Made by a program: the position numbers and the translations under genes
Notes under the pieces: generated by a model
What the model saw: only the letters and a program-made list of their open reading frames with translations
Databases searched by the model: none
What the model was told of the DNA's origin: nothing
Shown: positions 1,582 through 58,108 of the stretch, one piece after another
Position numbering within the stretch: position 1 is the stretch's first letter
Layout of the letters: each line of letters starts with the position of its first letter
Source: Patescibacteria group bacterium
GTDB taxonomy: Bacteria; Patescibacteriota; Minisyncoccia; Phycocordibacterales; UBA918
Reading direction: 5' to 3'
Length of the DNA stretch: 64,000 nucleotides
NCBI GenBank assembly: GCA_040386275.1
Contig: JAZKFU010000003.1
Span: 46,554-110,553, forward strand

Positions 1582-1584
1582 ACA

Positions 1585-2598: not shown

Positions 2599-2649
2599 AA
2601 ATTGATGTTTAAGTATTACTAATATTTAATAAATCATTTAACTCGCAAT

Positions 2650-2768
2650 GACTTTCAGAAACGAGTACAGTGCTAGGCGCGCAAGGACTTTTCTTGTAGA
2701 CGTACTTCTTGTACGGCGGAAAGAAAAGTATCGCAGCGCAACAACGCAATGTGCCGTTTCTGGAAGTC
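2650..2768 (+). repeat. MITE-like intergenic repeat, copy D (short form, ~120 bp) with terminal inverted repeats TTTCAGAAACG...CGTTTCTGGAAG
   Basis: Shares its left end (ctttcagaaacgagtacagtgctagg) and right end (caacaacgcaatgtgccgtttctggaag) with the copies at 5155, 14850 and 18340. Internal hairpin CGTAC-TTCTT-GTACG. Fills the spacer between two minus-strand genes. Confidence 0.7.
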
Positions 2769-2771
2769 ATA

Positions 2772-3704
2772 TCAAGTGAATAAGATGAAATAGCCTGCGG
2801 TAATTACTAAAACATACAGCACCCGCCGCATGACTTCTTTTGGCTTCGCCTCATGAGTGGCGACACTATCGGGCAATAGTGAAGCAAACACAATCGTGAT
2901 TAATAAAATAAATACAAATTTCACTCCATCAAGCGCTTGCACTACCGCCACGTCTCCCAAGTCTGTTGCTTTAAGCAAGAGGAAGGCGGCAACTCCGGCT
3001 AGAATTTTGGCGAGTATCACTAATGCACCGGTCTTTTTAGTAGTTGTACCGGTTTGTTCACGAATTTTTTTGTAGTAGGTAGGGACAAGTAACAGTGAGA
3101 GCGCGAAGAGTACAAAACAGACGCGCGACCAAAAGAAACCATCGTCAAAGTTTGTTTCGAGGAACAAACCCTTCATGGTAATAAAGTGGAGCGCAAAAAA
3201 TAATCCACTGTGAAAAACATGGATGACGTCTTCCATCTTAGGAATGGTTTGTGCTACCAAAAGTGTTCCTAAAGACAGAACTACCACACCCCACATAAAA
3301 TTGGGCGAAAACGCCACATCCAAAAACAAATACACCATTCCGAATGACGAAATGGCCGACACTGCCCCAATCACCGGCATCACGTTTACTGCCTCTGCGT
3401 TACGCAAAGCCGAGTACATCGATACGAGGGCCATAAAAAACGTGTAGGCAGCCAAAAACGACATTGATACCACCTGAATAGTCGGCGACTCAACATTAGA
3501 GAAATGAGGAAACCCGACGGATCGTAACCCGGGAATAAACCCCACCAAATAAATCACCACCCAACCACCAGTTAAAATACACGAATAAAACGCGTAGACG
3601 AAGGGTCGTGGTAGAGCCTTATCGTCAGAAACAATATATTTATCGAGGAATGCCACCAACGCATTAAGGAATTGCCCGAGAGTTGCGAGTAATATCCATG
3701 CCAT
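2772..3704 (-). CDS. Polytopic integral membrane protein (about 9 TM), hypothetical; possible transporter in the glycoside hydrolase locus
   Basis: 310-aa ORF with multiple hydrophobic helices; no recognisable motif. Confidence 0.55.
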   Translation of the reverse strand: MAWILLATLGQFLNALVAFLDKYIVSDDKALPRPFVYAFYSCILTGGWVVIYLVGFIPGLRSVGFPHFSNVESPTIQVVSMSFLAAYTFFMALVSMYSALRNAEAVNVMPVIGAVSAISSFGMVYLFLDVAFSPNFMWGVVVLSLGTLLVAQTIPKMEDVIHVFHSGLFFALHFITMKGLFLETNFDDGFFWSRVCFVLFALSLLLVPTYYKKIREQTGTTTKKTGALVILAKILAGVAAFLLLKATDLGDVAVVQALDGVKFVFILLITIVFASLLPDSVATHEAKPKEVMRRVLYVLVITAGYFILFT

Positions 3705-3711
3705 TATACCT

Positions 3712-4935
3712 CTATTCTACTACAGCATTCGTGATACAAATTTGTTTATACACGTACGCAGAGGAACGAGGGGTTCGCTCTTGCGTAGCGTAATCTACCG
3801 CAATTAATCCAAAGCGCATTCCAAAGCCTAGTGCCCATTCGTAGTTATCAAGCAATGACCAGTACATGTGCCCGCGTACGTCAGCTCCTTTTTCAATGGC
3901 CCGCCAGGTTCCTAACACTTGTCCTTTAATATATTCAGCCCGCATACTATCAGCAGCGTCAGCAACGCCACCTTCTGACACAAACAAAGGTTTGTTGTAG
4001 CGCGCGAGCATCATGAGCGCTGTTTCAATTTTTTCTGGCGCAAAATTCCAATCCATGTCAGTCTTCCGCCAGGTTCTGTCGTCACCAAACTGCGTATAAA
4101 AATAATAATTAAGACCAATCGAATCACAACAGTCTTTCGTGCGATTCATAAATTTGTAGGTCCAATTGTAGTTTGCGATACGGGCTTTGATTTTATTAAC
4201 GAGACTCTTGTTCGCATCAAACACAATTACATGGTGCACAAAACTAACTTCCGTAGTTGGGGAAACTTTTTTAATGGCTTTGTAGGCTGCATTGTGACTT
4301 TTGGCCAAATTTTTCATCACCCGCAAATACAGAAATAACGGATTGATGCCTTTACTCGCTCTTGAATCAAGCATTTTGCCAGAGTTCGTAATAGAAATTA
4401 CATCCGTTACCGCAAAGCGTTTAAATGGAGGCCAACTACCGCGCAACCAGCCGTTACTCGCAAATACATTCGGTTCGTTCATGGTAGAAAAGTGATCACA
4501 AAGGTCACCTAATTGCTCCACTACGTACGCACAATACCGCGCAAAAATTTCGGGTGAATTTTTTTGTTCAAAGCTCCCTTTTTCAGAAAACCATAGTGGT
4601 TGAGTAAAATGCCAAATTGTAACGTAGGGTTTTAGTCCGCGTGCATGTAGGGCCTCGAGCACCTTTCGGTAGTGAACTATTGCCTCTTCATTAAATTTTC
4701 CTGGGGTAGGCTCAATCCGCGCCCACTCGACAGATAATCGGTGTGCGGTGTGGCCAAGCGATTTAGCTAAATCAAAATCAGCTTCGTACCGATTATAGTG
4801 ATCACAAGCGATTCCACATTCAGGCACGCGTCTTGCCCGAGCCGCTTCGGCCCAGTCGGTGTTATCAATACCGCCTTCGACTTGATAACTTGCCGTAGCC
4901 GAACCCCAGTAAAATCCTTCGGGAAATTTTTTCAT
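3712..4935 (-). CDS. Beta-glucosidase, glycoside hydrolase family 1
   Basis: N-terminal FPEGFYWGSATASYQVEGG. TMNEPN (acid/base) and FVSEGG (nucleophile region) motifs. Length 407 aa. Confidence 0.9.
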   Translation of the reverse strand: MKKFPEGFYWGSATASYQVEGGIDNTDWAEAARARRVPECGIACDHYNRYEADFDLAKSLGHTAHRLSVEWARIEPTPGKFNEEAIVHYRKVLEALHARGLKPYVTIWHFTQPLWFSEKGSFEQKNSPEIFARYCAYVVEQLGDLCDHFSTMNEPNVFASNGWLRGSWPPFKRFAVTDVISITNSGKMLDSRASKGINPLFLYLRVMKNLAKSHNAAYKAIKKVSPTTEVSFVHHVIVFDANKSLVNKIKARIANYNWTYKFMNRTKDCCDSIGLNYYFYTQFGDDRTWRKTDMDWNFAPEKIETALMMLARYNKPLFVSEGGVADAADSMRAEYIKGQVLGTWRAIEKGADVRGHMYWSLLDNYEWALGFGMRFGLIAVDYATQERTPRSSAYVYKQICITNAVVE

Positions 4936-4944
4936 AATTAAATG

Positions 4945-5035
4945 TTTCTCTTCTTACAGAAGCTGTACACCTTGTCAGTATTTTTTACAAAAATACTAGG
5001 CAAGGTCTTGCGAAAGTGCCTATGCACTTTCTCAC
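4945..5035 (+). repeat. Hairpin element core, copy A (same family as the tRNA-linked elements)
   Basis: cttcttacagaagctgtACACCTTGtc-agtattttttacaaaaatact-aggCAAGGTcttgcgaaagtgcctatgcactttc aligns with the tRNA-linked elements at 41634-41710 and 58001-58066. Flanked by an ~18-bp direct duplication of the GH1 start region (4917-4934 vs 5049-5067). Confidence 0.65.
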
Positions 5036-5154
5036 CCCAATAGAATTCTTCGGGAAATGTTTTTTTCAACCCGTTAGAAATTTGTTTGTCCATATGAATT
5101 GTAAATAAGTCTAACAGATTAAATCATTTTAAATATTTGTCATTATACCCTAAA

Positions 5155-5380
5155 GACTTTCAGAAACGAGTACAGTTCTAGGTGAGAAGTGACTCAATGT
5201 CACTTCGCAAGACTCATTGAGAGATTTTACAAAAATATCCAATGAGTGGACAGCTTCTGTAAGAAGGGCAAGGAAATTGTACAAAATGCGGTCCAGCGAT
5301 TTTCCTTAGGAGGAAAAATCGGGACATAAATTCAGAATAATCGCTTCGCTCATTTCTTCATTTGCCATTTGTGAAAGTTC
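5155..5380 (+). repeat. MITE-like intergenic repeat, copy B (long form, ~225 bp) containing an inverted copy of the hairpin core
   Basis: About 85-90% identical to 14850-14960 over the first ~110 bp, homologous through ~aattcagaat. Internal segment 5172-5262 is the reverse complement of element A. Hairpin GAAGTGAC-tcaat-GTCACTTC. Confidence 0.75.
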
Positions 5381-6012
5381 TAGACTAGACTAACAATCAT
5401 TAAGGTAGCTGCCACCAAGAATAATGAATACTCTACCACAGACACCCAATTTGGACGTAAATACCAGTAGATAATCCAATCATCCACCCCAAATCTAGTG
5501 ATGTAGTCCTGTAATTCATTTTCGGTCCACGACACCATAAAGCGTAATTTTGTTTCTTCAATCGGTAATTGTTTTAAATACCCACCGTCTGCGAGCATAG
5601 AACGTAAACGATTAGCGCGGCGTCCAAAAAATTTGTAATGACGCGTCGAAAGTGGCCACAGCAATTGAAGCCCCCAGCCAGTACCATATAAATCATTTAA
5701 TAAATGGAGCGTCACGGCGAGCACAATAATCAATCCCCAAAATCCGCCCCACAGAAGTACTGGTGTAAAAATAAGTAACGAAATGATTGGATAATGCAAA
5801 AATGTCCGGTGGTCTCGGGTGTAGCTGGCGTCAGTACTGACTTTCCCTCGTTTTAGTATCTCCGGAATCGCATCAATATCAGGCAACATCGCAAGCGGTA
5901 GCCCGATTAAAAAATACCACCAGAGTGGTTCGATATCATAGACAGCACACGCAATCAACACTGCAAAAATTCCATTCGCAAAATCCGCCAACAACGCCAG
6001 AATTGATTTCAT
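5380..6012 (-). CDS. Membrane-bound metal-dependent hydrolase-like protein (DUF457/YdjM-like)
   Basis: 210-aa polytopic protein with LAMLPDID and HLLNDL histidine/aspartate motifs, reminiscent of the YdjM family; weak call. Confidence 0.45.
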   Translation of the reverse strand: MKSILALLADFANGIFAVLIACAVYDIEPLWWYFLIGLPLAMLPDIDAIPEILKRGKVSTDASYTRDHRTFLHYPIISLLIFTPVLLWGGFWGLIIVLAVTLHLLNDLYGTGWGLQLLWPLSTRHYKFFGRRANRLRSMLADGGYLKQLPIEETKLRFMVSWTENELQDYITRFGVDDWIIYWYLRPNWVSVVEYSLFLVAATLMIVSLV

Positions 6013-6064
6013 ACTAAAAGTATAACAAAAGGCGCGCTTTGTGGGCGCACCTTTCCTTTATAAC

Positions 6065-6484
6065 TTACACCCAGGCAATTTCACCTAAGTCTTTAATCAT
6101 CGATACACTGGAAGAATCTTCTGATGAACGATCAGGTCTGAAACGATGTGCCGGCACCATTCTGCCATTCCGGATCAGTTCGCCTGCGACACCTTTGGTA
6201 TTCTCTACCCAAAAGCTTACCGGTTCAGTTCCTACTCGAACCATCACAAACCTAGTCCGAAGCACTTTCCGATACCGCATCTTATGCAAGCCTGATGCAA
6301 AAAAGAGACGATACCCACCATCATGGCCATGACCGTGCCAACCCATCACTTGGAGACAATGCCAGTCTTGCATAAAGCGCCACAGTATTGGCACCCTTTT
6401 AGACACCGCTGATTTGTCAGCCGAAAAGGTCACTGCCGAAGCAAAAGGTACCTTATCGTTTACCTCTTCCCACCATAGTCCCAT
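6065..6484 (-). CDS. Hypothetical protein; possible degraded metallophosphoesterase fragment (WHGHGHDGG)
   Basis: 139-aa ORF with no clear domain. His-rich GHGH segment only. Could be a gene remnant. Confidence 0.25.
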   Translation of the reverse strand: MGLWWEEVNDKVPFASAVTFSADKSAVSKRVPILWRFMQDWHCLQVMGWHGHGHDGGYRLFFASGLHKMRYRKVLRTRFVMVRVGTEPVSFWVENTKGVAGELIRNGRMVPAHRFRPDRSSEDSSSVSMIKDLGEIAWV

Positions 6485-6531
6485 TTGAATATCCCCTTGA
6501 TGTTTCTAAAGGAATTAAACTACAAAAAACA

Positions 6532-7263
6532 TTAAAAATCAAGGGTGGCCAAGAAATTAACCGGCGCTAAGTTTTTAAGCCAGACGGTATACAATTCTTT
6601 AATCGCCACTACATCCTTCAGATTATAGAGAGCAATATCACGAAATTGTTTTTTAGAAAACAAATTTGCTACTAGCGTTCCTCGTATCCCATCTAGATTC
6701 GGGCTGGTGATTCCATATGAGCGGCACAAGAGGTGCAATGTTGGTCGGTTACGCATCGCACCGTACCAGGTAAGTTCATCGAGCACATCAATATGATACG
6801 GCATTGATTGCTGAGTCAGGTAGCGATATTTCATTAGCTCTTGAGTCGGCTGAATACCATGCGAAAGCGAACGATGGATAATGTACGGCATAGCAAACGC
6901 ACGGCCGTTAAACGTAACAAACGTGTCGTACTCACGCGCCCCTTCCCAAAACTCTTCCAAGAGTGAGGCTTCTGAACGATTTTTTAAAATAAAGTCTCCC
7001 ACCACTTCGTCTGATTCCCCGCCAGTACCGACATAATACACAGCCCCGTGGGCTCGTTCCAAATCGTATACTCCTAAAGCCACAATTCGTCCGGTAAACG
7101 GTGACAAGCCTAGTTCGTTTTGCACAGTAGTGAGTAACCCCTCTCGTTCTTCGTTAGTGCGTACCTTACGGTCAATCCATGCACGCAAACTGTTTTGGGT
7201 AACCGCATCCAGACTATCCCACGATTCGCCCACTGTTTCTATATCCAAGATAAGTGTGCGCAT
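6532..7263 (-). CDS. RNase H-like 3'-5' exonuclease (PolB exonuclease-domain-like, COG3298/YprB family)
   Basis: N-terminal MRTLILDIETVGE, the acidic Exo I motif typical of DnaQ/PolB-exo-like folds. Confidence 0.55.
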   Translation of the reverse strand: MRTLILDIETVGESWDSLDAVTQNSLRAWIDRKVRTNEEREGLLTTVQNELGLSPFTGRIVALGVYDLERAHGAVYYVGTGGESDEVVGDFILKNRSEASLLEEFWEGAREYDTFVTFNGRAFAMPYIIHRSLSHGIQPTQELMKYRYLTQQSMPYHIDVLDELTWYGAMRNRPTLHLLCRSYGITSPNLDGIRGTLVANLFSKKQFRDIALYNLKDVVAIKELYTVWLKNLAPVNFLATLDF

Positions 7264-7273
7264 ACTCCATAGT

Positions 7274-8050
7274 TTAGAGGGCCACTGGTATCGCTACAAA
7301 ACAATTAAGCAACATGTCTCGTTCGGGAGAGAGATAGTACCGATACACACCCCCTACGGTAGCCCCGCCACATTCATCAGTATCAATACTTGAGGTTTTG
7401 CCAAACAACGTTAACCCGTCAATCGTGTAGCCAATCAACGTACTTTCCCCACTACCACTATACGCAGCCACGTCAGAGTTACGAATCGGCATTCCCGTTG
7501 GTGAAACCGCCACAATATCCGACGCAATACAATCAGTCACTCCCAAATCACCTGACCGGAGTGGTAACGTAAAGACAATGGTAGGACTGGTGGTTGTAAT
7601 AGTGCTCGAGGCATCTCCCATGACAGTTTCCATTTTAGAAAACGTACGTTGTCCCGCTGATTCACTGTAGAGTAATCCACCGGTTAATTGCGGCACATTA
7701 ACTGCTCGATAATTTGCACACAACTGCACGGTTGCGACTGTTTCTGGCTCTGTTTCCTCACTAGTGGTAGCAGTCACGTCAGGTTCTGTATTTACTTCCT
7801 CTGGAGTGGGCGCTAGCGCCACATCGGTAAAGGTTGATAGTTTCTTGCGTAACGCTTCTAATCGGCTTTGTTTATCATCAGTCGGAGTGCCGATTTCTGC
7901 TGTCATGGTTGCAGTTTCAGTCCCAAACAACATCTCTCGATAGCTCGTAGTTGAACTACCGTCAGCGGAAAACCAAAGCGTCAGCACAATACCGGCAAGC
8001 AAAAACGCCAGCAATAAAATAAACAAAAAGAAATTCCGCGTCCGTATCAT
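7274..8050 (-). CDS. Hypothetical membrane-anchored secreted protein (T/S-rich)
   Basis: ORF 7274..8098; likely start at MIRTRNFF, followed by a TM anchor. No known domain. Confidence 0.45.
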   Translation of the reverse strand: MIRTRNFFLFILLLAFLLAGIVLTLWFSADGSSTTSYREMLFGTETATMTAEIGTPTDDKQSRLEALRKKLSTFTDVALAPTPEEVNTEPDVTATTSEETEPETVATVQLCANYRAVNVPQLTGGLLYSESAGQRTFSKMETVMGDASSTITTTSPTIVFTLPLRSGDLGVTDCIASDIVAVSPTGMPIRNSDVAAYSGSGESTLIGYTIDGLTLFGKTSSIDTDECGGATVGGVYRYYLSPERDMLLNCFVAIPVAL

Positions 8051-8109
8051 AGTACTATCATAACAAAGATAGCGGGCTTTGCCCGCTATCGTATCCACCT
8101 TTAAGGAAG

Positions 8110-9390
8110 TTACTTAATCTTTATTTTAACCAATTGCTCCACTCGCCTAATATCAGCTAACAATGCGCCTCGATTAGTGTTACTCATATATAAATTAAAG
8201 ACTGATTTACCACCATTTCGAGCAAACATTGCACGGTCACCAATTTTTTTATTGATTTCAATTTTATAAAACGATTCTAATTGTTCAATTTTTTTTATTC
8301 CCGTCATTGAAGTAATGACACCCTCTTTGGGTAAAAACCATTTCATGTACACAGCGGTGCCACTACATTTTTTTGGTATTTTTGGCTTACGAGGAATGCG
8401 AATTAAAATATCATTGAGTGGGTGATCAATATTACAACTAAGAGAATAGAGCTTATCTCGTGCACCGCCCATACGTGGACCAACTTCAATCACTTTAAAT
8501 TCCCCATCGATTTTCATTAATTCAGTGTGCGCTGTAGTACTTCGCAACCCTAAGGCATGAATAGCAGTCTCAGCCACCCGCTCAGCGCGTTCTATTGTAT
8601 CTCGCTTTAATATAGTGGGGGTCATCTGTTGATAGCCATAAAAATCTTGATGTCCAATATCTTTACCGGTTTTTACGCGCACTAATGGCAAATGATATAC
8701 CCCACCTCGTGAATTAACATAACTATCAATGGAATAGATATCCCCCTCCATATATTCTTCAGCAAGAAGTTTAGGCTCTTCTAGACGCTTATCTTTTTCG
8801 TAGGCTTTTCGAATTTTACGAAAACAGGTCGCTAGTGCTTTCTTAAGTTCATCTTCGTGGTAGCAAATTGAAACAAACAAACTACCCGACAAATTTGCCG
8901 GCTTAATTATCATGGGAAAACCAATTTTTTCAATGAGGCGTTTACTTTCTTTTTCAGAAACGTCTTTAATGAGTGTAAAACGAGGAGTCATTTTTGGGTC
9001 GTACACTTTAAAACGCTTACGCATTTCATATTTATCAGTGGACCATGACAAAGAATCACTGGTTGGTGTCCGCAAATACGGCACATGAGGAATAATTTTT
9101 GCAAACCGGGCAATATTTGTTTCAGTACGACAGGTTATTGCGAGCAGTTCATCTTGGTATGGAAAAAGAGCTTCGCTAATTTTACTTGGTTTTGTAAAAT
9201 CTATTTGTAATACAATATCAAAACGATCTGCATTTACCGGTAGCGGTGTTTTATTGTCCCAAATTAACATCAATCTATATGCAGTTTTGGTATCTTCGGC
9301 GTATTTTTTAAGACTGCGTACAGAAGAACCGTGAGCACTCATCACAAAAGCTATGATATTTTTTAAATCAGCTTTTTTCATAGCGGTCAA
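8110..9390 (-). CDS. ATP-grasp family carboxylate-amine/thiol ligase
   Basis: MIIKPANLSGSLFV, EEYMEGDIYSID and VIEVGPRMGG segments match the ATP-grasp central and C-terminal subdomains. AT-rich (~38% GC). Confidence 0.7.
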   Translation of the reverse strand: MTAMKKADLKNIIAFVMSAHGSSVRSLKKYAEDTKTAYRLMLIWDNKTPLPVNADRFDIVLQIDFTKPSKISEALFPYQDELLAITCRTETNIARFAKIIPHVPYLRTPTSDSLSWSTDKYEMRKRFKVYDPKMTPRFTLIKDVSEKESKRLIEKIGFPMIIKPANLSGSLFVSICYHEDELKKALATCFRKIRKAYEKDKRLEEPKLLAEEYMEGDIYSIDSYVNSRGGVYHLPLVRVKTGKDIGHQDFYGYQQMTPTILKRDTIERAERVAETAIHALGLRSTTAHTELMKIDGEFKVIEVGPRMGGARDKLYSLSCNIDHPLNDILIRIPRKPKIPKKCSGTAVYMKWFLPKEGVITSMTGIKKIEQLESFYKIEINKKIGDRAMFARNGGKSVFNLYMSNTNRGALLADIRRVEQLVKIKIK

Positions 9391-9492
9391 TAATTAGGAA
9401 ATGAAGGTTAGAGAGTGGGAAGTTTGCTTTTTTTGCGCTCCCAAATTTGATTTATAATACCACATATGTTATAAAATAGCAACATTTAACCT

Positions 9493-10242
9493 ATGATAAT
9501 CCACCATACTGAAAAACATCGCTGGATTAAAGAAATTGACCCCTCAATATTCCCTGATTTTGGAAAAAATAATTCTAAGAAAATTCAATCCCTCCTCAAA
9601 GACATTTCCACTACGACCATTACCCATTCGTTTGAATTACTGACGACAGAGCATATTTCCTGGTTTGAAAAACTCTATAATGCTAATTTAGCAACGAAGC
9701 ACAACCCTCGTCCGTATGATGTATATGGGACAACCTTAGGGAAAGACATTATTATACATCCCTACCACATTTTAATCCTCTACGAAGCAGGAGTCCCAAT
9801 TGGTGGTACAATTTTCACATTACGAAAAGAACGCCTTTCGATGGTGTATCGTACCTACCCTTCTGACTGGTCTTTGCATTCATTCAAATGTTCACCCGCA
9901 CTCTACGCAGAGTATATTGCCACTGAACATGCCTTAGCGAACAAGCTACCGTTTTTAGTCCACGGTGTGGATTTAAACCCCTATGGAGTCCATTCAAATG
10001 TTGGGGTGGCAATTTTTAAATTATCGACTGGATGTCATCCCGAGATTAAACCTAGCTATTCGATTCACGAAACGGACCTCAACACACTGCCTTATAACTC
10101 TCTTATCCTTGAGGCTCCTGTAGCGGGGAATAAAATTATACAGGGGTATATAATTGGAAATGAAGAAACTGCTCAAAAATACGAACAACTATTTAAATAT
10201 AGTGATCAGCTACAGGTGACACTCTATACTCCCACTCTATGA
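9493..10242 (+). CDS. FemAB/BioF2-like GNAT-fold transferase domain protein, paralog 1
   Basis: Paralogous to 10239..10973 (HSFELLTTEHISWFEKLY vs YTIETLTRDHLAWFEPMY; VGVAIFKLSTGCHPE vs IGLAIFKISLGYKPY). The FK..G signature is reminiscent of FemAB-type peptidyl transferases. Divergent from the ATP-grasp gene, with a TTGATT-17-TATAAT-like promoter. Confidence 0.45.
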   Translation: MIIHHTEKHRWIKEIDPSIFPDFGKNNSKKIQSLLKDISTTTITHSFELLTTEHISWFEKLYNANLATKHNPRPYDVYGTTLGKDIIIHPYHILILYEAGVPIGGTIFTLRKERLSMVYRTYPSDWSLHSFKCSPALYAEYIATEHALANKLPFLVHGVDLNPYGVHSNVGVAIFKLSTGCHPEIKPSYSIHETDLNTLPYNSLILEAPVAGNKIIQGYIIGNEETAQKYEQLFKYSDQLQVTLYTPTL

Positions 10243-10973: not shown

Positions 10974-10983
10974 GCACATCGCT

Positions 10984-12318
10984 TTACGTTATTCCAATAG
11001 ACTGCAGAAAGTGAACATGTTGTTCATTAGTGGGATCAAATTTCCCCGCATCAATAGTAATGTCGGGTAAGGTATTATTTTTCACCGCCTCCCAATGACG
11101 CATATTTCCTTTCCGATATATTAAATCTTTGGTAAACACTACACCCGGAACCATACCTGAAGTCCCTCGAAATATTCGCACACATCGATTCCACGCCAGT
11201 TCTTTTGCATGTTCAATTGAGGTATTTTCCGTTATGAGAAAATAATCAGTCATCAGTGCATGAGTTTGAGAAAAATTTCGCGGATGAGCACCATCAGATC
11301 CAAGTGCCAAACCAATAGCCAAATATGCCTCTAACCCCGAATATCCTTGCAAAGATTGCGCTTGTTGCTCACGATAGGTTGCTAGTCCTTCTTCACCTTG
11401 CTCATACTGATGTAATCCCACTCCTAATAATTTTAATACGGAACGTTCCCCCCGTATCTTACGAACGACGTGCGTTCCAATTTCATGAGCAATCAGTCCC
11501 CGCACTCGTGCTTCTGTTAACCGTTTACGTTTACTTCGTTTAATTAATTGTTCACTACTTGGTAAATAAATTTTCTGTAAATTATAAGAAACAGAAACAG
11601 TCGAACGAGCACCTTTACTATCGACTACTACACTCCAGCTGTCGTCTATACCATACTCTTTAAATCCTTCCTCAAAAATATTTTTAAGGAGGCCTGCATC
11701 AGTAACCGCAGGTGTTCGAGACACTACAATTCGCGGAGTCACTTCAAGACTTACGAAATGAGGATGTGACTTTTTATAAAATGAAAATAAAGCTTTTAAT
11801 CGTTCTACAGATGGTGTATGTTCGTTATTAAAATTTGGTTTAGCTATCATTCTATTAATTTCTCGCTCAGCTGTCTGCATCACTTTTAAAAAAATGTCGG
11901 CATCAACAGTACCATACAGTTGCTTTGAATACTCGAGAAATAAACGCATGCTCATTTCTGGATTAACATCTCGACCCAGGGCCTGTGTTTGACGAAGTAA
12001 TTTGATTTTAGATAATCGTTCTTCTATAGCTAGATGGTATTGCTCTTTAATTACCTGAGGCAATTCATCATCGTGAGCAAGATCTTTATGGAGCTCATGG
12101 AGCAAACCCTCTGGTTTGTCATAATTATTACGATTATTTTTAGTATACGTAAAAATTGGGTGTGGGATTTCACCTCGCAAAAATATTTCCTTACCTTTTG
12201 TAAGACAATACAAGTCCGGTCGAATACTACTTAACACTGAAACTTTTGCGTGTTGATATTTTTTAAATATTTTTTCGTCAAACGCTTCGTTATCAAAGGT
12301 ATTGCCCGTATCACGCAT
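10984..12318 (-). CDS. Zincin-like metallopeptidase-fold protein (HExxH; DUF1704/QEGLA-family-like)
   Basis: LIAHEIGTHVVR HExxH motif and downstream EQGEEGLATY, resembling the QEGLA motif of DUF1704 proteins that accompany ATP-grasp ligases. Confidence 0.45.
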   Translation of the reverse strand: MRDTGNTFDNEAFDEKIFKKYQHAKVSVLSSIRPDLYCLTKGKEIFLRGEIPHPIFTYTKNNRNNYDKPEGLLHELHKDLAHDDELPQVIKEQYHLAIEERLSKIKLLRQTQALGRDVNPEMSMRLFLEYSKQLYGTVDADIFLKVMQTAEREINRMIAKPNFNNEHTPSVERLKALFSFYKKSHPHFVSLEVTPRIVVSRTPAVTDAGLLKNIFEEGFKEYGIDDSWSVVVDSKGARSTVSVSYNLQKIYLPSSEQLIKRSKRKRLTEARVRGLIAHEIGTHVVRKIRGERSVLKLLGVGLHQYEQGEEGLATYREQQAQSLQGYSGLEAYLAIGLALGSDGAHPRNFSQTHALMTDYFLITENTSIEHAKELAWNRCVRIFRGTSGMVPGVVFTKDLIYRKGNMRHWEAVKNNTLPDITIDAGKFDPTNEQHVHFLQSIGIT

Positions 12319-12323
12319 AGACG

Positions 12324-13046
12324 TTAAATCCCAAACTGTACAGCGGGAGCACTTGAACTAGCTGAACCTGTTGCCTGTCCTTCTACTGGTATCATTTGCA
12401 ATTCTTCTTGGGGGAGATTGAAATTAATTTGTGGATTCACGGCGACGGCAATTTGCGCTTTAAAGTCATCGTATGAGGACACTTCCATCTTGGTCCCATT
12501 AAGGTAAAACGATGGTGTGCCGGTTAACCCTAAATCTCGAGCTTCATACATGTTTGTTTTTATATTGTCCTGGAGCAGGCTTGATTTTTGGTGTTGGGCG
12601 AATTTTTCCAAATCAAGCTCAAGTTCTTCAGCATACTTTTTAAAGAAACCAGTTGGGTTTGTTGATTTAGACCATTCATCTTGACCGGCAAATAGTTTAT
12701 CGGCATATTCGAAGAACTTTCCTTGTTGCCCAGCCGCTTCAGCAGCGCGTGCGGCCGGTTCGGCAAACGGATGGATTTGCACTAACGGATAGTGTTTGTA
12801 TTCAAATTTAACTGAGTCACCAAATTCTGTCATCACTTCATTTACCACCGGTTGGAACGCTCCACAGGCTGGACACTGAAAATCACTGTACTCCACGAGT
12901 GTGACCGTCGCGTTTTCATTACCTTTAATATGGCTTTGCACTGTTACTCCTTCATTGGCTTTTTCTGACACACTTGATGAATACCAGATTGCTCCCCCAA
13001 TCAACACAAACATAATCACCGCAATTACTACCCATGGATTTTTCAT
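12324..13046 (-). CDS. DsbA-like thioredoxin-fold thiol:disulfide oxidoreductase (membrane anchored)
   Basis: FQCPACGAF CxxC motif in a thioredoxin-like context with an N-terminal TM anchor. Start chosen at MKNPWVV. Confidence 0.8.
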   Translation of the reverse strand: MKNPWVVIAVIMFVLIGGAIWYSSSVSEKANEGVTVQSHIKGNENATVTLVEYSDFQCPACGAFQPVVNEVMTEFGDSVKFEYKHYPLVQIHPFAEPAARAAEAAGQQGKFFEYADKLFAGQDEWSKSTNPTGFFKKYAEELELDLEKFAQHQKSSLLQDNIKTNMYEARDLGLTGTPSFYLNGTKMEVSSYDDFKAQIAVAVNPQINFNLPQEELQMIPVEGQATGSASSSAPAVQFGI

Positions 13047-13142
13047 ATCGCATATTGTAACAAATAAATTCAATTGATTGGAAACTTTTCACCTTGTAAA
13101 ATATGGATTTTTATGCTGTAATGTAAATTCATTTTAAAAACT

Positions 13143-13883
13143 GTGGCAAAACGACCCTTCATACGAAAACAAAAAAAGAAAACTCACGGGACTACGTTTT
13201 GGGATAACGAGTATAAAAATGCTGACCACCTCAAACTCTCTACTGATCACAGTGAGGATCTCGAAAAGTTCACCCGATATATCATCCGTCAAAAACGGGG
13301 AGATATATTAGCAGTGGGCGCCTCGGTCCTTGATGTTGGGTGTGGTAATGGACGTAACTTAATTTTCTTAGCACGCGAGTTTGGGATGAAAGGAGTTGGC
13401 TACGACATCAGTGCCCAAGCCATCGAACAAGCCAAGCAGGCCTCAACGCAATTTGATCTCACCTACGAGGCCCGCAGTATTGCTGGCTTACTCACCGTAC
13501 CAGATAACTCGCAGAGTCTGGTGCTCGACATGATGACCTCACACTTTTTAAATAAAAAAGAGCGCGAGTTTTTACGCGATGAAATATTTCGTGTCCTCGT
13601 ACCAGGCGGGTTTATGTTTATGAAAACCTTCCTCGCCGACGAAGACCTCCACACCAGACGACTCCTGCGTGATTTCCCCGGCAAAGAAGCCGGCGCCTAC
13701 GTCCACCCCGTTATCGGAGTAGATGAATATGTCTACTCTGAAGAAGTGTTAACCGATTTCCTCGCCGAAAAGTTTATCGTCCATAAAATCTACAAATCCC
13801 ACCGCCATGTGTTGAAGGGAAAGGCGAGAAAGCGACGGACTGTATCCATATACGTAGAAAAAGACTACCAAACGGACAGGTAA
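13143..13883 (+). CDS. Class I SAM-dependent methyltransferase
   Basis: LDVGCGNGRN glycine-rich motif I, and acidic motif II (GYDIS). Confidence 0.8.
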   Translation: MAKRPFIRKQKKKTHGTTFWDNEYKNADHLKLSTDHSEDLEKFTRYIIRQKRGDILAVGASVLDVGCGNGRNLIFLAREFGMKGVGYDISAQAIEQAKQASTQFDLTYEARSIAGLLTVPDNSQSLVLDMMTSHFLNKKEREFLRDEIFRVLVPGGFMFMKTFLADEDLHTRRLLRDFPGKEAGAYVHPVIGVDEYVYSEEVLTDFLAEKFIVHKIYKSHRHVLKGKARKRRTVSIYVEKDYQTDR

Positions 13884-13926
13884 AAATAGCATATCCCGTT
13901 GTCGTTGTTCATAAAATAAATTTCAA

Positions 13927-13950
13927 CGTACAAAAAAGTACGTCTCAAAT
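13927..13950 (+). terminator. Rho-independent terminator candidate (ACGTAC-aaaaaa-GTACGT + T-run)
   Basis: Perfect 6-bp hairpin followed by ctcaaattatttt, 45 nt after the methyltransferase stop. Confidence 0.45.
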
Positions 13951-14112
13951 TATTTTATTCCATCTCCTAGGGCTATATCTATTTTTCACTGTCCTAACTA
14001 ATTCTCTTAGATTTATCAAACATTCCTTGCGCGCCTAGGACTAAATCTATTTTTGACAATCCTTCCTTTTCAGAGAGAGTTTAGATTTTATTGAGCTGCT
14101 AGATTACATTAT

Positions 14113-14156
14113 AAAAATACCAAGTAGGAGGTTTTGTCTCTTACTTGGTATTTTGT
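14113..14156. terminator. Bidirectional terminator hairpin (TACCAAGTA...TACTTGGTA flanked by A/T runs)
   Basis: aaaataccaagtaggaggttttgtctcttacttggtatttt lies between convergent genes. Confidence 0.5.
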
Positions 14157-14175
14157 GGTGTAATTTTGCGTAATG

Positions 14176-14445
14176 TTACTGAGAAAACATTTCTTCGTCG
14201 GGGGTTGGAAATTCCATACCTACGTCACTGTGACCGGTTACTGAACTTGAGGCGGTGAGAGGGTCAACGGGTGGGTTACTGGTTGGCGGGGTGTAACCTT
14301 CTCGTGGTTCTCCTTCTGCTGGCGCGGTTGGGATTGGAGTTACCGGTGGTTCTACCACTACTTCAGTTTTTGGATTACTAATCAGATACACGTAGTAACC
14401 TAAGGCCACAATAATCAACGATTGAATAATGATAATAAGTTTCAT
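14176..14445 (-). CDS. Small proline-rich secreted/membrane-anchored protein, hypothetical
   Basis: 89 aa; N-terminal TM helix then a P/T-rich segment. Confidence 0.4.
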   Translation of the reverse strand: MKLIIIIQSLIIVALGYYVYLISNPKTEVVVEPPVTPIPTAPAEGEPREGYTPPTSNPPVDPLTASSSVTGHSDVGMEFPTPDEEMFSQ

Positions 14446-14490
14446 ATGCCCTATTATACCCTGCTTCTTAAAGCTAACTGTATTAATTCA

Positions 14491-14730
14491 CTATTTCCCC
14501 GCTTGTTTTTGTTGTCTTTTTATTGTTTGAAGATACAGTTTTTCTACTTTTTCCCGAGCCCACGGTGTTTTGCGTAAAAATACCAGACTAGAATTAAGGC
14601 TCGGCTTATCAATAAAACAATTAATGGCAATCTTCTCCCCCAACTTCGGAAACCCATACTCAGCAATTAAAAATTCCAAAATTGCCTTCAAAGTAACCCC
14701 ATGCAACGGATTTTTCGGCTGTTCATTCAT
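14491..14730 (-). CDS. VF530/DUF2132-family small protein (putative DNA-binding four-helix protein)
   Basis: NPLHGVTLKAILEFLIAEYGF...SLVFLRKTPWAREKVEKLYL resembles the conserved core of VF530 (DUF2132) proteins. Confidence 0.5.
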   Translation of the reverse strand: MNEQPKNPLHGVTLKAILEFLIAEYGFPKLGEKIAINCFIDKPSLNSSLVFLRKTPWAREKVEKLYLQTIKRQQKQAGK

Positions 14731-14849
14731 AAATTTATAGGTGTAAGTATACTACCACTAAATTATTATTTTTTTATTTTTCTAAAATAAGTTATGTTCA
14801 CTCAAACGTTTTCCTAAATTATATGCAATCTTTTAATTTACCGGTAGGG

Positions 14850-15085
14850 TTTCATAAACGAGTACAGTTCTAGGTGAGAAGTGACTCAATGTCACTTCGC
14901 AAGACTCATTGAGGGATTTTGCAAAAATAACCAATGAGTGGACAGCTTCTGTAAGAAGCGAAAGGACAAAGACGGCAGCTGGTCCAGCGATTTTCCCAAG
15001 GGAAGAAAAAATCGGGACAGAAATTCAGAATTGTCGCTACACTCTGTTCTTCATTCCACAACGAAATGTGCCGTTTCTGGAAGCC
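14850..15085 (+). repeat. MITE-like intergenic repeat, copy C (long form) containing an inverted hairpin core
   Basis: Near-identical to copy B over ~110 bp. Right end caacgaaatgtgccgtttctggaag matches copies D/E. ORFs 14909..15142 and 14938..15168 inside it are judged spurious. Confidence 0.75.
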
Positions 15086-15094
15086 GTCTCCCTT

Positions 15095-16360
15095 TTAGAT
15101 ATTTCTGCCCGCGACGGCGCCCGTCGACCACGACAACTGTAAACTATACCCCCCTGACGGTCGATTAATATTTAAAACATCTCCGACCACATACAACCCG
15201 GGTACGAGTTTTGACTCCATGGTTTTAAAATTTATCTCGCGTAAATCTACTCCGCCTGCGGTGGCCACTGCTTTATCTGAACCAAGCAAACCGGTAACGG
15301 TTAAAGGGAGCGCTTTGATGGTGACGCCAATTCGTTTTCGGTTACTGGCCGAGACACTATGAACGGGAGTTTCTCCATCTATATCGAGCGAGTTTAGCAG
15401 TGGTATAACGAGAGCAGTTTTAATCATCTCACTTAAAACATTTTTTAGTTTTTTATTAGGAGTCTCAGTAAATTTACTGAGCAACACTTCCTGCACTACA
15501 CTCGCGTCGATTTCAGGAACCAAATCAATTTTTATTGTCACTTCGCCTTCTACGAGTACGTCTCCGATGAGTTTGCTTTGATTTAAAATAAGCGGGCCTG
15601 ATAGTCCAACATGGGTGAATAATAGTTTACCCGTAGCTTTTTGTCGCTTCACACCATTGCAATATATCGATATCGAAGCATCGGGAATACTCACTCCCCC
15701 TAATGTTTTAGTCCAACTTTCCTTAACGGCGACCGGCACGAGCGTATCGTTACCTTTGTGAATGGTGTGCCCTAGTTTCTGCAACCAAACATACCCATCC
15801 CCCGTTGAACCTGTTTCTGGTCGGGCTGTCCCGCCGGTTGCTACTATTACTGACTGAGCCCGTACCTCACTGTATGGAACTAGTGTAATTACAAATTCAG
15901 TAGTGGATTTTGTAATAGCCACTACTCTTTTACCGGTCTGTACGGTTACCTTTTGGTTTTTTAACTCATTTTCTAATACTAAAAATACTGATTCCGCTTT
16001 TTGGGTGTGCGGAAACAAACGACCTTCATTTTCTTCAATAAACGATAAATCGCGTTCAGCAAAAAAAGTAATCGTGTCGGTCACTCCGTACTGCATAAAG
16101 GTCGAGAACAAAAATTTTCCCGCTTCTTTGTACTGGCTGAGCATCTCTCGCACGACGGGTTTATTATTGGTGACGTTACACCGTCCCCCGCCAGTAATCA
16201 AAAGCTTTTTCCCGAGTCCAGGATTTTTTTCAATAAGTAGTACCCGCTTGCCACGCTTACCCGCTTCAATGGCAGCCATCATCCCTGCCGGTCCGCCACC
16301 AATAACCACGACATCAAAGATATCGATACTGAAGTTTTGTTGAGTACGAGGCTTGGCCAT
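15095..16360 (-). CDS. HI0933/YhiN-family NAD(P)/FAD-binding flavoprotein (aminoacetone oxidase family)
   Basis: DVVVIGGGPAGMMAAIEA Rossmann dinucleotide motif. Length and central GGGRCNVTN match HI0933-like proteins. Confidence 0.85.
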   Translation of the reverse strand: MAKPRTQQNFSIDIFDVVVIGGGPAGMMAAIEAGKRGKRVLLIEKNPGLGKKLLITGGGRCNVTNNKPVVREMLSQYKEAGKFLFSTFMQYGVTDTITFFAERDLSFIEENEGRLFPHTQKAESVFLVLENELKNQKVTVQTGKRVVAITKSTTEFVITLVPYSEVRAQSVIVATGGTARPETGSTGDGYVWLQKLGHTIHKGNDTLVPVAVKESWTKTLGGVSIPDASISIYCNGVKRQKATGKLLFTHVGLSGPLILNQSKLIGDVLVEGEVTIKIDLVPEIDASVVQEVLLSKFTETPNKKLKNVLSEMIKTALVIPLLNSLDIDGETPVHSVSASNRKRIGVTIKALPLTVTGLLGSDKAVATAGGVDLREINFKTMESKLVPGLYVVGDVLNINRPSGGYSLQLSWSTGAVAGRNI

Positions 16361-16362
16361 AC

Positions 16363-18264
16363 TTAATACGACAAACCAGCATACCGCGGGAATAATACTG
16401 GCGTACCATCAGCCGTAATCCCGTTTACGTCAATGGGTAATTGCTCGGCTGTTTTAGGCCACGGTAGGGGCAAGGTGCCCATAAATAGTTTGTCACCAAA
16501 CAACACATCACTCACGCCCGCTCCTTCACTGCCCGGGAGCCACGCTGCCACGAGCGCGTCCCACGAATCTACTTCGTTACTAATTAACAGAGGTCGACCG
16601 GACACAATGATGACCACAACCTGATTACTATTAGCTTGCAAATTTTGAATAGTTTTCAAATCTTCATTAGATAAAATGGGGTACTCTCGATCACCCCAGC
16701 CTTCGGCATACGGCACTTCTCCGACCACTGCAATACCCACGTCGGCTTTTTGGCCAGCAGTTTTGTATTCCCCCATCAAACTGTATTCAAGAATAGTTTG
16801 CGGTGACACAGCGTCCTTAATGCCCTGCAAGATTGAGGTACCCGGGGTAAGGACGTTACCATCGACACCCTGCCACTCTACCGTCCAGGCACCAGATTGC
16901 CTTCCAACATTATCAGCCGCACTGCCGGCTACACGAATATGACGCGTGGTTTTAGATAGGGGTAATACATCGTTAGTGTTTTTTAGTAACACCAGTGATT
17001 GTGCCACCGCGGTTCGAGCGAGCGCTTGATCAGACGCAAGCGATGGCACTACTGCCTCTCTTGAATCAATACCGTCAAACATCCCAAGAGCAAATTTAGC
17101 GCGCATGATTCTCGTGACTGCATCATCAATGCGAGCGGTAGAAATTAGTCCAAACCGATGCGCCCACGTCACATGTTTTATAAACGTTTTGTAATCAAAC
17201 GGCAACATCACCATATCCACTCCTGCATTAATGGCGCGAGTGCTCGCTATAAATTTATTCAACACTCCTTCATAGACACCATACCAGTCAGAAACCACAA
17301 ATCCCATAAATCCAAGCTCTGTTTTCAATTCCCCCGTCAGGATGGATTTATTTCGAATCAGTCGATTATTGCCCCACTCGTTTAAACCAACCATAACCGA
17401 CAACGCACCTGCGTTGATGGCGGATTTAAATGGTGGCAGATATTGTTTTTCTAAATGTTCGATATCGTCATTGGTTTTCCCTTGATCAATAGAAAAATTT
17501 TTGTTGGTTGAGGTCTTCCATTGCATTGCCCCCACGCCTACAAAGTGTTTGAGTGTAGCAAGCACCGGCATCGTTTCGCTGTTGGCTTGCGGATAGGTTT
17601 GTAAGCCTTCGACATAGGCACTCCCTAAGCGTGCTGCTAAGAGTGGGTCATCTGAATACGCTTCGTACACCCGTCCCCAACGAATATCACGCGGCAAATC
17701 TAAATTTGGAGCATAATTCCAATTGGCACCCACCATTTGTAAATCACGAGCGGTCACCTGAGCTATTTGTTTCACTAAGGTGGCGTCTCCAGTTGCTCCT
17801 AAGGCAATTTGATGGGGGAACACTACGGTCCCTGGCAATAATGCGTGCCCGTGCACCGCATCAACTCCGTAGAGAATTGGAATTTTTAAACGATTGGACT
17901 GAGCCTGAGTTTGAAACGATTCAATCATCGTGCGCCAGCCGTCGGCAGTATTTTGTTCCGGCTTGGCTCCCGCACCACTTAATACTGCCCCTAATCCGTA
18001 GGTAGCAATATCAGAAGGATTGGTCAAGCTGTTTTTTTCAACCAGCGCCATCTGGCCAATTTTTTCCTTTAGCGTCATCTGTGCCACTAAATCCTGTATT
18101 CGTGTTTCAACCGGAAGACTAGTATCCAGATATTTTGTACTCAACGGTGGGACATTATTTTCTAACATACTATTTCGAACCACAAATAACCCCATAATCA
18201 CTACCGCCCCTCCAATCAATAACAGTAAGGTACGCCACACCCCGAACGACAATAAGGACTTCAT
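16363..18264 (-). CDS. Glycoside hydrolase family 3 beta-glucosidase (BglX-like), N-terminal TM anchor
   Basis: GFVVSDW nucleophile motif and the GH3 N- and C-terminal domain layout; 633 aa. Confidence 0.9.
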   Translation of the reverse strand: MKSLLSFGVWRTLLLLIGGAVVIMGLFVVRNSMLENNVPPLSTKYLDTSLPVETRIQDLVAQMTLKEKIGQMALVEKNSLTNPSDIATYGLGAVLSGAGAKPEQNTADGWRTMIESFQTQAQSNRLKIPILYGVDAVHGHALLPGTVVFPHQIALGATGDATLVKQIAQVTARDLQMVGANWNYAPNLDLPRDIRWGRVYEAYSDDPLLAARLGSAYVEGLQTYPQANSETMPVLATLKHFVGVGAMQWKTSTNKNFSIDQGKTNDDIEHLEKQYLPPFKSAINAGALSVMVGLNEWGNNRLIRNKSILTGELKTELGFMGFVVSDWYGVYEGVLNKFIASTRAINAGVDMVMLPFDYKTFIKHVTWAHRFGLISTARIDDAVTRIMRAKFALGMFDGIDSREAVVPSLASDQALARTAVAQSLVLLKNTNDVLPLSKTTRHIRVAGSAADNVGRQSGAWTVEWQGVDGNVLTPGTSILQGIKDAVSPQTILEYSLMGEYKTAGQKADVGIAVVGEVPYAEGWGDREYPILSNEDLKTIQNLQANSNQVVVIIVSGRPLLISNEVDSWDALVAAWLPGSEGAGVSDVLFGDKLFMGTLPLPWPKTAEQLPIDVNGITADGTPVLFPRYAGLSY

Positions 18265-18339
18265 AATCCCCAGTATACCATCCCTCGCCCCATCTAAACT
18301 ATTTTATAAATTTATTTATTCTCCCTCAGCAAGGGTAGA

Positions 18340-18488
18340 TTTCAGAAACGTCGTGATTAAAATTTCATATAGGGTCATTAAAATGAGTAGGATTCTAGGC
18401 GCTCAAATGAAATGGTGCGAGCCGTACTTCTTGTACGGTGAGTATCATTTCGTGCAGAGCAACAACGAAGCCTGCCATTTTTATGGCC
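18340..18488 (+). repeat. MITE-like intergenic repeat, copy E (~150 bp)
   Basis: Left end tttcagaaacg, ttctaggcgc, hairpin CCGTAC-TTCTT-GTACGG, right end agcaacaacgaagcctgccattttt. Lies between the GH3 start and the P-type ATPase stop. Confidence 0.65.
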
Positions 18489-18493
18489 CTCAC

Positions 18494-48232: not shown

Positions 48233-48233
48233 A

Positions 48234-53991: not shown

Positions 53992-54186
53992 CTTGAACGC
54001 GCACAAACGGTACACTTCTTTGTTGTGCTACGGTAAGTAAACATTCACCGTACAGAAGTACGGCTCATGATTACTTCCTTGCACGCCGCGAATTGTACTC
54101 ATTTGAGCGTGTTCAAATACAGAAAATGAATTACCGTCAACGATTTTATTTTCCTTGCTAATCATCCTTAAACTCCATACAATGGA

Positions 54187-57808: not shown

Positions 57809-57940
57809 AAATAATAGATATACAGAAAATTACCTGAGCGTATCACCTCCCAAAAACCCTAACGGGTGCTCAACAGCTATTGTATCATACTACCCATTTT
57901 GGGGTGTTTATAAGTTTTTGTAACCCTTTAAATCTTTAAG

Positions 57941-58068: not shown

Positions 58069-58108
58069 CAAAACAAAATACCCAAGCAAAGCTTAGGTAT
58101 TTTATTTG

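Follow-up and report, generated by a model that had tools for sequence, protein, structure and literature searches.

Rod-shaped, structured interspersed repeats abut stop codons in Patescibacteria

What is the repeat that recurs in the spacers upstream of three glycoside hydrolase (GH) genes within the first 19 kb of a 64,000-nt stretch of Patescibacteria DNA? An earlier reading of this stretch (the whole of which we call the window) had described four copies in one orientation, with terminal inverted repeats and modular interiors. It had proposed either a non-autonomous transposable element or a regulatory module shared by a beta-glucoside regulon. We found that the sites belong to a family of ~121-nt, rod-shaped interspersed repeats of Paceibacteria-type Patescibacteria. 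The family is apparently undescribed, and a literature search returned no Patescibacteria repeat or RNA of such kind. We see about an even chance that the element is a non-autonomous mobile or exchangeable, terminator-like interspersed repeat, analogous to SPRITE or ERIC.

That a dispersed repeat family exists, as the original prediction held, was supported by the ends of the units and by a covariance model. For the left-end 18-mer TTTCAGAAACGAGTACAG we found three matches compared with 0.06 expected by chance, at 2653, at 5158 and, with a single mismatch, at 14850; a right-end 19-mer matched at 2748 and 15065 (two compared with 0.03). The termini CAGAAACG and CGTTTCTG are complementary, as had been noted. 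In an exact-pattern scan with one genome per species, the left core was found in four Patescibacteria metagenome-assembled genomes, including two Kaiserbacteria; a further match in a Clostridia metagenome-assembled genome was judged to be chance. Scanning metagenomes for CTAGG-N(20-26)-apical hairpin matched seven contigs, from which we excluded L012 as a probable chance match (L001-L022 denote related loci or contigs from other genomes). The covariance model, R1, was built from 18 units and has 121 positions and 38 pairs. Searching the window and L001-L011 with R1 revealed 28 copies, often several per contig (four in L007 and four in the 5.3-kb L011), and more copies were present in loci fetched via TopA homologues. 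By these homologues, the organism belongs with Paceibacteria/Nomurabacteria-like Patescibacteria. In the window, the copies that we call A, D, E and F scored 102-115 bits (E-values of about 1e-21 to 1e-25). Compact copies measure 117-123 nt throughout, despite a median pairwise identity of just 52%; mutual identity among the four compact window copies is 53-60%. With six copies in 64 kb, the density in the window is about one 121-nt structured repeat for every 10 kb. Searching the whole window against Rfam at gathering thresholds gave four tRNAs as the sole matches, and the element stayed unmatched at E up to 10 (2400-5600) and at E up to 1 (L008 6700-7300). The apical motif had no exact matches in viral contigs.

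The unit overall is a fully paired rod, and the supposed terminal inverted repeats are the rod's outer helix. In copy A (2648..2770, plus strand; a canonical 121-nt unit scoring 115.4 bits), this outer helix, P1, pairs 2648-2663 with 2755-2770. Across the family P1 is 11-18 bp long and has a copy-specific sequence, with ends that are often GAC...GUC. Two bulges are conserved, an A after P1 (2664 in copy A) and a G between P2 and P3. In copy A, P2 is formed by GUACA (2665-2669) and UGUGC (2750-2754), and the 3-bp P3 pairs 2671-2673 with 2746-2748. Next comes a conserved asymmetric internal loop, with CUAGG on its 5' side (the conserved UAGG lies at 2674-2677 in copy A) and CAACAACG on its 3' side (the conserved CAACAAC at 2739-2745). 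P4 and P5 are constant in length and variable in sequence. They lead to an apical hairpin, GAGCCGUAC-UUCUU-GUACGGUGAG in most copies, which covaries in the most distant ones; the hairpin CGTAC-TTCTT-GTACG that had been described earlier is present in A, at 2701-2715, and in D. An A-rich pentamer (R1 columns 11-15, mostly A) pairs with a U-rich pentamer (columns 117-121, mostly U), and the two enclose a ~90-nt interrupted hairpin. In this structural model, the unit is laid out like a bidirectional intrinsic terminator whose stem has been greatly lengthened. We also considered group II intron domain V, whose lower helix we take the apical GAGCCGUA...UACGGU to resemble; this candidate was dropped, as there was no Rfam support and the hairpin is too short.

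The fold is backed by extensive covariation. RNAalifold, applied to a structure-free MAFFT alignment, returned 34 pairs with compensatory double changes in 26 of them, and one of these pairs occurs as UA in six copies, GC in five, AU in four and CG in three, with none broken. The alignment fitted to the model (26 distinct copies) is biased toward structure, although the unfitted MAFFT alignment agrees with it; in the fitted alignment 90.8% of cells are paired and double changes occur in 36 of the 38 pairs. The covariation score was 0.714, compared with 0.204 for column shuffles (none of 500 reached the observed value) and at most 0.171 when partners were slid by 1-3 columns. Orthologous copies behave alike. 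Between the topA copies of the window (E) and L016, whose flanks are 78% identical, 16 of 38 pairs have changed and 12 of these 16 are still paired. At the helicase locus, the L008 and L003 copies differ in 15 pairs, 14 through pairing-preserving double changes and one broken. Resident copies, or their replacements, therefore remain structured.

One strand folds markedly better than the other, and we call it the sense strand. Among the paired cells we counted 103 G.U/U.G against 14 A.C/C.A combinations, or 61 against 14 once three conserved G.U positions were left out. RNA folding energy was lower for the sense strand in 27/27 copies (mean -51.3 versus -36.6 kcal/mol). With DNA parameters the asymmetry has the same direction and is smaller, the sense strand still being the more stable. 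The reverse-complement hairpin, which is the one carried in the upstream gene's mRNA, is weaker, yet its mean is about -37 kcal/mol. Mutational bias as a cause of the G.U excess was ruled out, because the GC skew of the elements (+0.17 on the sense strand) is opposite to that of the surrounding plus strand (-0.12); the strand asymmetry is thus not a product of mutational skew.

We then asked how the copies are placed relative to genes, counting 23 loci after orthologous loci were merged. Copies are antisense to the upstream gene at 18 of the 23, and where genes lie in tandem they are antisense to both neighbours at 15 of 16 loci. At 15 of the 23, the 3' end of the sense strand falls between -20 and +10 nt from the stop codon of an opposite-strand open reading frame (ORF). 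Copies A-D lie -1 to +9 nt from the stop codon of the upstream gene and leave 49 to ~400 nt before the next start codon, so that they abut a stop rather than exactly filling the spacer, as had been claimed. The copies of L013, L016, L018 and L021 are 1-3 nt from serS or topA stop codons, and in some cases (F, L005f and the L011 rpsL copy) the stop codon is inside the outer helix. Within the one window, the strand of E and F flips along with the local genes. Orientation therefore follows the gene and not one DNA strand or replication direction, and replication strand was ruled out as its cause. Exceptions to the orientation rule are two divergent-gene loci (L003a/L008a and L007 9064), a sense copy behind truB (L001 5063) and L011 4372. 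The last belongs to the sole head-to-head pair that we observed, in which units of different lineages (L011 4372-4491, minus strand, and 4535-4657, plus strand) stand 43 nt apart; one of the two is the sense-oriented exception.

The genes whose stops are abutted are diverse. In the window they encode a membrane protein, a YdjM-like protein, an HI0933-like flavoprotein, a P-type ATPase, a methyltransferase and TopA. Elsewhere they encode YqeY, a DEAD-box helicase (three orthologous loci), NusG, SIMPL, GH15, a thioredoxin-reductase-like protein, RpsL, RpsG and SerS. Downstream of copies we found, among others, relA/spoT, rpsG and a gene for a CNNM transporter. Pfam confirmed that the three neighbours singled out earlier are glycoside hydrolases (a GH42/GH2/GH10-like TIM barrel, GH1 and GH3). 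They are the only glycoside hydrolases among the downstream genes, and the association is local to the first 19 kb of the window.

Comparison of related genomes showed that the element shares its slot with ordinary terminators. In the topA-relA spacer, an element is present in the window, in L018 (TopA 99% identical in amino acids to that of the window) and in L016 and L017 (92%). A canonical A-tract/GC-hairpin/T-tract terminator occupies the spacer in L013 (90%), and canonical terminators are likewise found in L020 (87%), L021 (85%) and L022 (83%). L019 (89%) has a 46-nt spacer made of 10 nt and the relA promoter, with no element. The slot 3' of serS varies in a similar manner: in L013 and L021 it is filled by an element of a single lineage, with numerous compensatory differences between the two, L020 has two canonical terminators, L019 has nothing and the window has a small gene. 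This small ORF, which is membrane-protein-like (window ~47990-48233, minus strand), begins directly after the serS stop; the same position is taken by an 80-aa CBU_0592-family (PF26604) gene in L014 and L022, and by the element in L013 and L021. Taken with the order of A tract, long hairpin and U tract, the alternation with terminators makes the element resemble an oversized bidirectional terminator in a terminator slot. At about eight loci the element is itself followed, 20-30 nt further in the direction of the gene, by a canonical bidirectional terminator; there the mRNA of the upstream gene must include the reverse complement of the element.

Turnover is apparent even between close relatives. 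A-type copies (window A, L005c, L001 7076 and L009) are 82-87% identical and stand behind four different genes, and D is 75% identical to L004a. Over 15 kb the window shares 95% identity with L018, and 93-100% in the flanks of the topA locus, whereas between the topA stop and the relA promoter identity drops to 43-66% with sharp borders. The two topA copies keep the core motifs and have entirely different P1 and P5 sequences, which is block replacement and not point mutation. When L005 is compared with the window, D is unchanged, while the F locus has a different unit, of which the 5' half alone survives in the window beside F. At D, F and L001 7076, a complete copy abuts the stop, and the 5' part of an older copy remains 21-35 nt further on. 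As read from these alignments, copies are gained, lost and replaced among close relatives, and one lineage appears behind unrelated genes in different genomes. The search for empty sites in orthologous intergenic regions, which had been suggested earlier, thus revealed topA and serS slots that are filled, empty or terminator-bearing, without a clean empty junction. The closest case is the 46-nt spacer after topA in L019, and no exact junction can be read at topA because the filled alleles differ by more than the element.

Searches for mobilising machinery were negative. No consistent direct repeats that could be target-site duplications flank 27 copies when the outer helix is extended to its end. 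Pfam and NCBIfam searches of ~55 window ORFs and ~20 ORFs of other loci detected no transposase, integrase, HUH enzyme or reverse transcriptase near the copies, and the 64-kb window has neither a Y1 transposase nor a tyrosine recombinase. Downstream of their sense-oriented copy, L008 and L003 have a 381-aa ORF that belongs to no Pfam or NCBIfam family and has no homologue in the window. Between that copy and this ORF we noticed ~140 nt of non-coding sequence (L008 6979-7120, L003 5160-5300) with at least 40 nt identical, compared with 73.6% overall identity, and no Rfam match; this stretch may be a candidate leader RNA of an unknown kind.

As a mobile or exchangeable, terminator-like repeat, the element would persist only where its harm is small, namely behind a stop codon and with the weaker hairpin in the host transcript. 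For the upstream gene it would probably act as a 3'-end hairpin or leaky terminator, while in the opposite direction a strong hairpin followed by a U tract would meet transcription entering from downstream. Homology-anchored recombination after DNA uptake could explain part of the turnover.

The nearest published parallel is SPRITE, which has AAAA/TTTT ends, a long duplex and a U-rich tract, makes no target-site duplication and lies near the 3' ends of coding sequences (PMC3049150). It has no known mobilising enzyme and was proposed to be selfish and possibly co-opted as a terminator (PMC3049150). The likeness lies in a small interspersed repeat shaped as an oversized intrinsic terminator near coding-sequence 3' ends. 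It is one of description; SPRITE belongs to another phylum, and no sequence similarity is expected. The element here differs in being almost fully paired over ~55 bp, in its conserved internal loops and apical hairpin, in its very strong covariation and fixed length, and in having its better-folding strand opposite the upstream gene, a rule not described for SPRITE. ERIC (or IRU) is an imperfect palindrome of ~127 bp in transcribed intergenic regions that is conserved across genera, has larger variants formed by internal insertions and exerts orientation-dependent effects on upstream mRNA (PMC3184786). Our element resembles it as an imperfect palindrome of about 120-130 bp in intergenic regions. 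The terminal inverted repeats, target duplications and flanking TA reported for ERIC-type elements (PMC3184786) were not found here, and ERIC occurs in both orientations without a rule of abutting stop codons. The bcr1 repeats of the Bacillus cereus group (~155 bp) likewise have a distribution that is not conserved between strains and an RNA-type fold kept by compensatory changes, but they comprise two independent stem-loops flanked by 5-bp direct repeats (PMC3184786), whereas the present element is a single rod without flanking repeats.

Ordinary bidirectional terminators share with the element the slot a few nucleotides past the stop and the order of A tract, hairpin and T tract, and alternate with it at orthologous loci. 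Their stems are GC-rich, perfect and 8-12 bp long, and have no common sequence, whereas the element is ~121 nt long, has homologous cores across loci and genomes and is strand-asymmetric in its G.U content. REP and REPIN sequences, which are GC-rich palindromes spanning 20-40 nt (inverted pairs of them in REPINs), carry a GTAG or CGTC tag and are associated with a RAYT gene, were ruled out: the element is a single 121-nt rod in which the loops and apex are conserved and not the arms, there is no GTAG end tag, and no Y1 transposase is found in the window.

Several observations weigh against a mobile, terminator-like repeat. The strand under structural selection is absent from the mRNA of the upstream gene, and a pure role as terminator of that gene predicts the opposite strand asymmetry. 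Several loci have a canonical bidirectional terminator at a distance of 20-30 nt from the element; at these the element is redundant as a terminator, and transcription appears to be kept off its sense strand. The U tracts, besides being short (3-5 U), pair with the A tract. At the loci examined we found no mobilising enzyme, target-site duplication or clean empty-versus-filled junction, and homologous recombination between strains, with replacement of alleles, could account for some of the turnover in place of transposition. Upkeep of the fold in orthologous copies is also unexpected for dead selfish copies. Because selection on the strand that is not that of the host gene is left unexplained by the mobile-repeat reading, an antisense-RNA device and a folded-DNA recombination site are kept as live rivals.

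In the RNA version, which we regard as possible though doubtful, the host has recruited the element as a strand-specific device that acts on RNA transcribed from the gene's opposite strand. Such a device might be an insulator or terminator, bound by protein, against antisense transcription into the 3' end of the gene, or the structured 5' domain of a cis-antisense RNA. This would account for selection on the antisense strand, for a tolerance of G.U pairs that is typical of RNA and for an asymmetry much larger with RNA than with DNA parameters. The conserved loops and fixed length, the fold kept in place at the topA and serS loci, the orientation tied to the local gene (E and F flip with theirs) and the order of hairpin and then U-rich pentamer in the sense direction point the same way. 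Against it, neither a conserved upstream sequence nor a fixed-distance promoter for a small RNA gene was detected, a weak negative because little is known of which promoter types these bacteria use. When the sequence upstream of 28 copies was scanned position by position for -10-like hexamers, no peak emerged, and a sigma-70 promoter and terminator scan of 1-19000 yielded 46 promoter-like sites, compared with 39.5 expected, with nothing consistent at the elements. At the roughly eight loci with a bidirectional terminator 20-30 nt upstream on the sense strand, there is no room for a promoter. Presence is also patchy among close relatives, even behind essential genes. In the DNA version, which we think quite unlikely, the folded single strand is a site for a structure-specific recombinase or an HUH/Y1 enzyme, like attC bottom strands or REPINs, and the enzyme would move or exchange the element or its intergenic block. 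An attC site is an imperfect palindrome of 57-141 nt just after the stop of a cassette ORF, of which the bottom strand folds and is used, with its extrahelical bases conserved. Here too the folding strand is the complement of the coding strand and begins right after the stop, a resemblance of layout only. The bulges are conserved (the A after P1, the G between P2 and P3) and the stems are variable, inverted-repeat and target-duplication hallmarks are missing, blocks are replaced with sharp borders, and the sense strand is more stable under DNA parameters as well. But no integrase, Y1/HUH or tyrosine recombinase gene was found in the 64-kb window or near copies elsewhere. The inner helix, AAAYG/CRUUU, is itself not invariant and is unlike the attC core RYYYAAC/GTTRRRY. 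Copies follow core housekeeping genes (topA, rpsL, rpsG) and not cassettes, and form no arrays; the apical hairpin, variable in attC, is conserved; and orientation is set by the gene, not by one replication strand. Identity with attC was ruled out, as core motif, integrase and cassette context are all missing.

The two readings of the original prediction fared less well. A classical MITE (a transposable element of the miniature inverted-repeat kind), moved by a DDE transposase encoded elsewhere that recognizes terminal inverted repeats, is very unlikely. Its size (near 120 bp), self-complementary ends and outermost pairs (often GAC...GUC) would suit such an element, its presence varies among relatives, and rve-type integrase genes do occur in the related genome L015. 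Movement and presence/absence differences between relatives are the part of this proposal that stood; conserved terminal inverted repeats, target-site duplications and a transposase in the window did not materialize. The terminal helix differs between copies of one genome and covaries, so it is not a conserved inverted repeat bound by a transposase; GAC/GUC at the very ends is all that recurs frequently, and no related IS was found. The whole unit is paired and not its ends alone, the strong strand asymmetry is needless for cut-and-paste of double-stranded DNA, and L015, with its rve genes, has zero copies in 22 kb. That the repeats are a cis-regulatory leader or terminator module common to a beta-glucoside regulon (GH5-like, GH1 and GH3) is almost certainly wrong, being refuted by the contexts at 23 loci. 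Three of the six window copies do lie upstream of glycoside hydrolase genes, and a different structured module (module X, below) stands directly upstream of the GH1 start codon. Beyond the 19-kb stretch, however, copies flank topA, relA, rpsL, rpsG, nusG, serS, yqeY and the genes for a DEAD-box helicase, CNNM, SIMPL and others. Copies are positioned by the upstream stop and not by the GH start, and the folding strand is opposite the GH mRNAs, which speaks against any cis-regulatory role for the GH genes.

Taken as one proposal, a strand-specific nucleic-acid device used by the host at gene ends seems unlikely. It would be either an RNA insulator, bound by protein, that halts or degrades antisense transcripts ahead of their entry into the gene, or a folded single-stranded DNA site for swapping intergenic blocks in naturally competent bacteria with tiny genomes. 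If true, this would add a new class to the known conserved structured elements, one restricted to Patescibacteria.

The genomes of Patescibacteria are tiny and streamlined and are thought to be poor in repeats and mobile DNA; still, the window is dense in repeats, including behind core genes. The family mixes signs of a functional RNA (covariation of riboswitch strength, fixed length, conserved loops) with signs of mobile DNA (patchy presence, one lineage at unrelated loci). Its abutment to stop codons with a fold on the strand opposite the gene is a rule absent from known repeat families. It offers a handle on the ends of transcription units and on intergenic exchange in these bacteria, and the covariance model can be used for annotation, where gene callers now sometimes place spurious small ORFs.

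The window copies differ in part from those described before. Among the four that had been claimed, A and D are canonical and B and C are chimeras; E and F, on the opposite strand, had been missed and were revealed, together with a remnant, by the covariance model and by BLAST of related loci onto the window. Copy A is followed by the stop codon of the upstream minus-strand ORF at 2772-2774. Copy D had been placed at 18340-18488 with the shared left end. The true unit is 18370..18490 (plus strand; 112.9 bits; identical in L005), with its own outer helix GGGUCAUUAAAAUG/CAUUUUUAUGGCCC and the P-type ATPase stop codon at 18494-18496. The TTTCAGAAACG upstream of it at 18340..18350 (plus strand) is an orphan fragment of another copy, corresponding to the 5' strand of an A-type outer helix. 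Copy E (53995..54115, minus strand; canonical, 101.8 bits) follows the topA stop (53989-53991) and lies upstream of the relA/spoT promoter. Copy F (13874..13995, minus strand; canonical, 103.1 bits) contains the methyltransferase stop (13881-13883) within the 3' strand of its outer helix. The remnant at 14021..14057 (minus strand) is the 5' half of an older unit that was displaced by F and ~25 nt of filler; its intact orthologue is L005 477-599.

Copies B and C had been interpreted as a single element with a modular interior. Their first ~30 nt are common with the units, the last ~30 nt in C alone, and ~180 nt of other sequence lies between, making them chimeras of unit ends and other modules. 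Copy B (5153..5384, plus strand) consists of the unit left end through CUAGG (5153-5182), module X (5183-5266), a 'module iv' hairpin GGTCCAGCGATTTTCC..GGAAAAATCGGGAC (5290-5325) and a degenerate right end that lacks 13 nt and reads TGCCATTTGTGAAAGTTC (5363-5380), in place of the shared right end described earlier. The ydjM-like stop codon (5380-5382) overlaps this end. Copy C (14846..15087, plus strand) has the left end through CUAGG (14846-14874), module X (14875-14958), module iv (14981-15018) and a unit right end (15057-15085), with the HI0933-like stop codon at 15095-15097. In L005, a relative 94% identical, the C locus holds three tandem or nested units; from this comparison, window C is read as the left end of the first unit joined to the right end of the third. 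The module iv hairpin, GGTCCAGCGATTTTCC-loop-GGAAAAATCGGGAC, recurs beside truncated units, at the two window positions, at L004 4519-4550 and at L005 1588-1625. We could not reproduce the resemblance to a tRNA-locus hairpin that had been reported for B and C: short-word BLAST found nothing, and only 6-mers such as CCCAAG/CTTAGG are common to both.

Module X (~85 nt) is composed of hairpin 1 (GAGAAGUGAC..GUCACUUC), GCAAGAC, a long hairpin 2 and then ACAGCUUCUGUAAGAAG, and has no Rfam match. Besides the copies within B and C it occurs at L005 1405-1490 and, outside the 121-nt family, at window 4950..5034 (minus strand), where it lies on the sense strand of GH1 and directly precedes that gene's start codon (4935). 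The hairpin sequences of this copy differ from the B and C versions yet still pair; the stems covary between copies. The copy at GH1 may be a genuine 5' leader. Upstream of module X and of the real GH1 start we observed a pseudo-copy of the GH1 N-terminus (MDKQISNGLKKTFPEEFYWG...; 5035-5093, compared with 4903-4935, both minus strand). Module X is thus flanked by ~32-nt direct repeats of GH1 5' coding sequence, an arrangement that suggests rearrangement or insertion at the 5' end of GH1.

Two further observations concern other parts of the window. The 3' 23 nt of tRNA-Leu(CAA) and its terminator hairpin (AAAATACCTAAGCTTTGCTTGGGTATTTT) are duplicated ~128 nt downstream with 92% identity (57927-58000 and 58055-58128), which resembles an att-site scar; in L016, L019 and L022, this parB-miaA interval houses a gene for a LAGLIDADG endonuclease. 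Finally, a promoter-like motif, TTGCTA-17 nt-TACAAT, precedes relA/spoT in the window (54150-54192) and in L013, L016 and L018-L022. It is conserved in all of these relatives and ends ~6 nt before the ATG, a position that suggests a leaderless or nearly leaderless mRNA.

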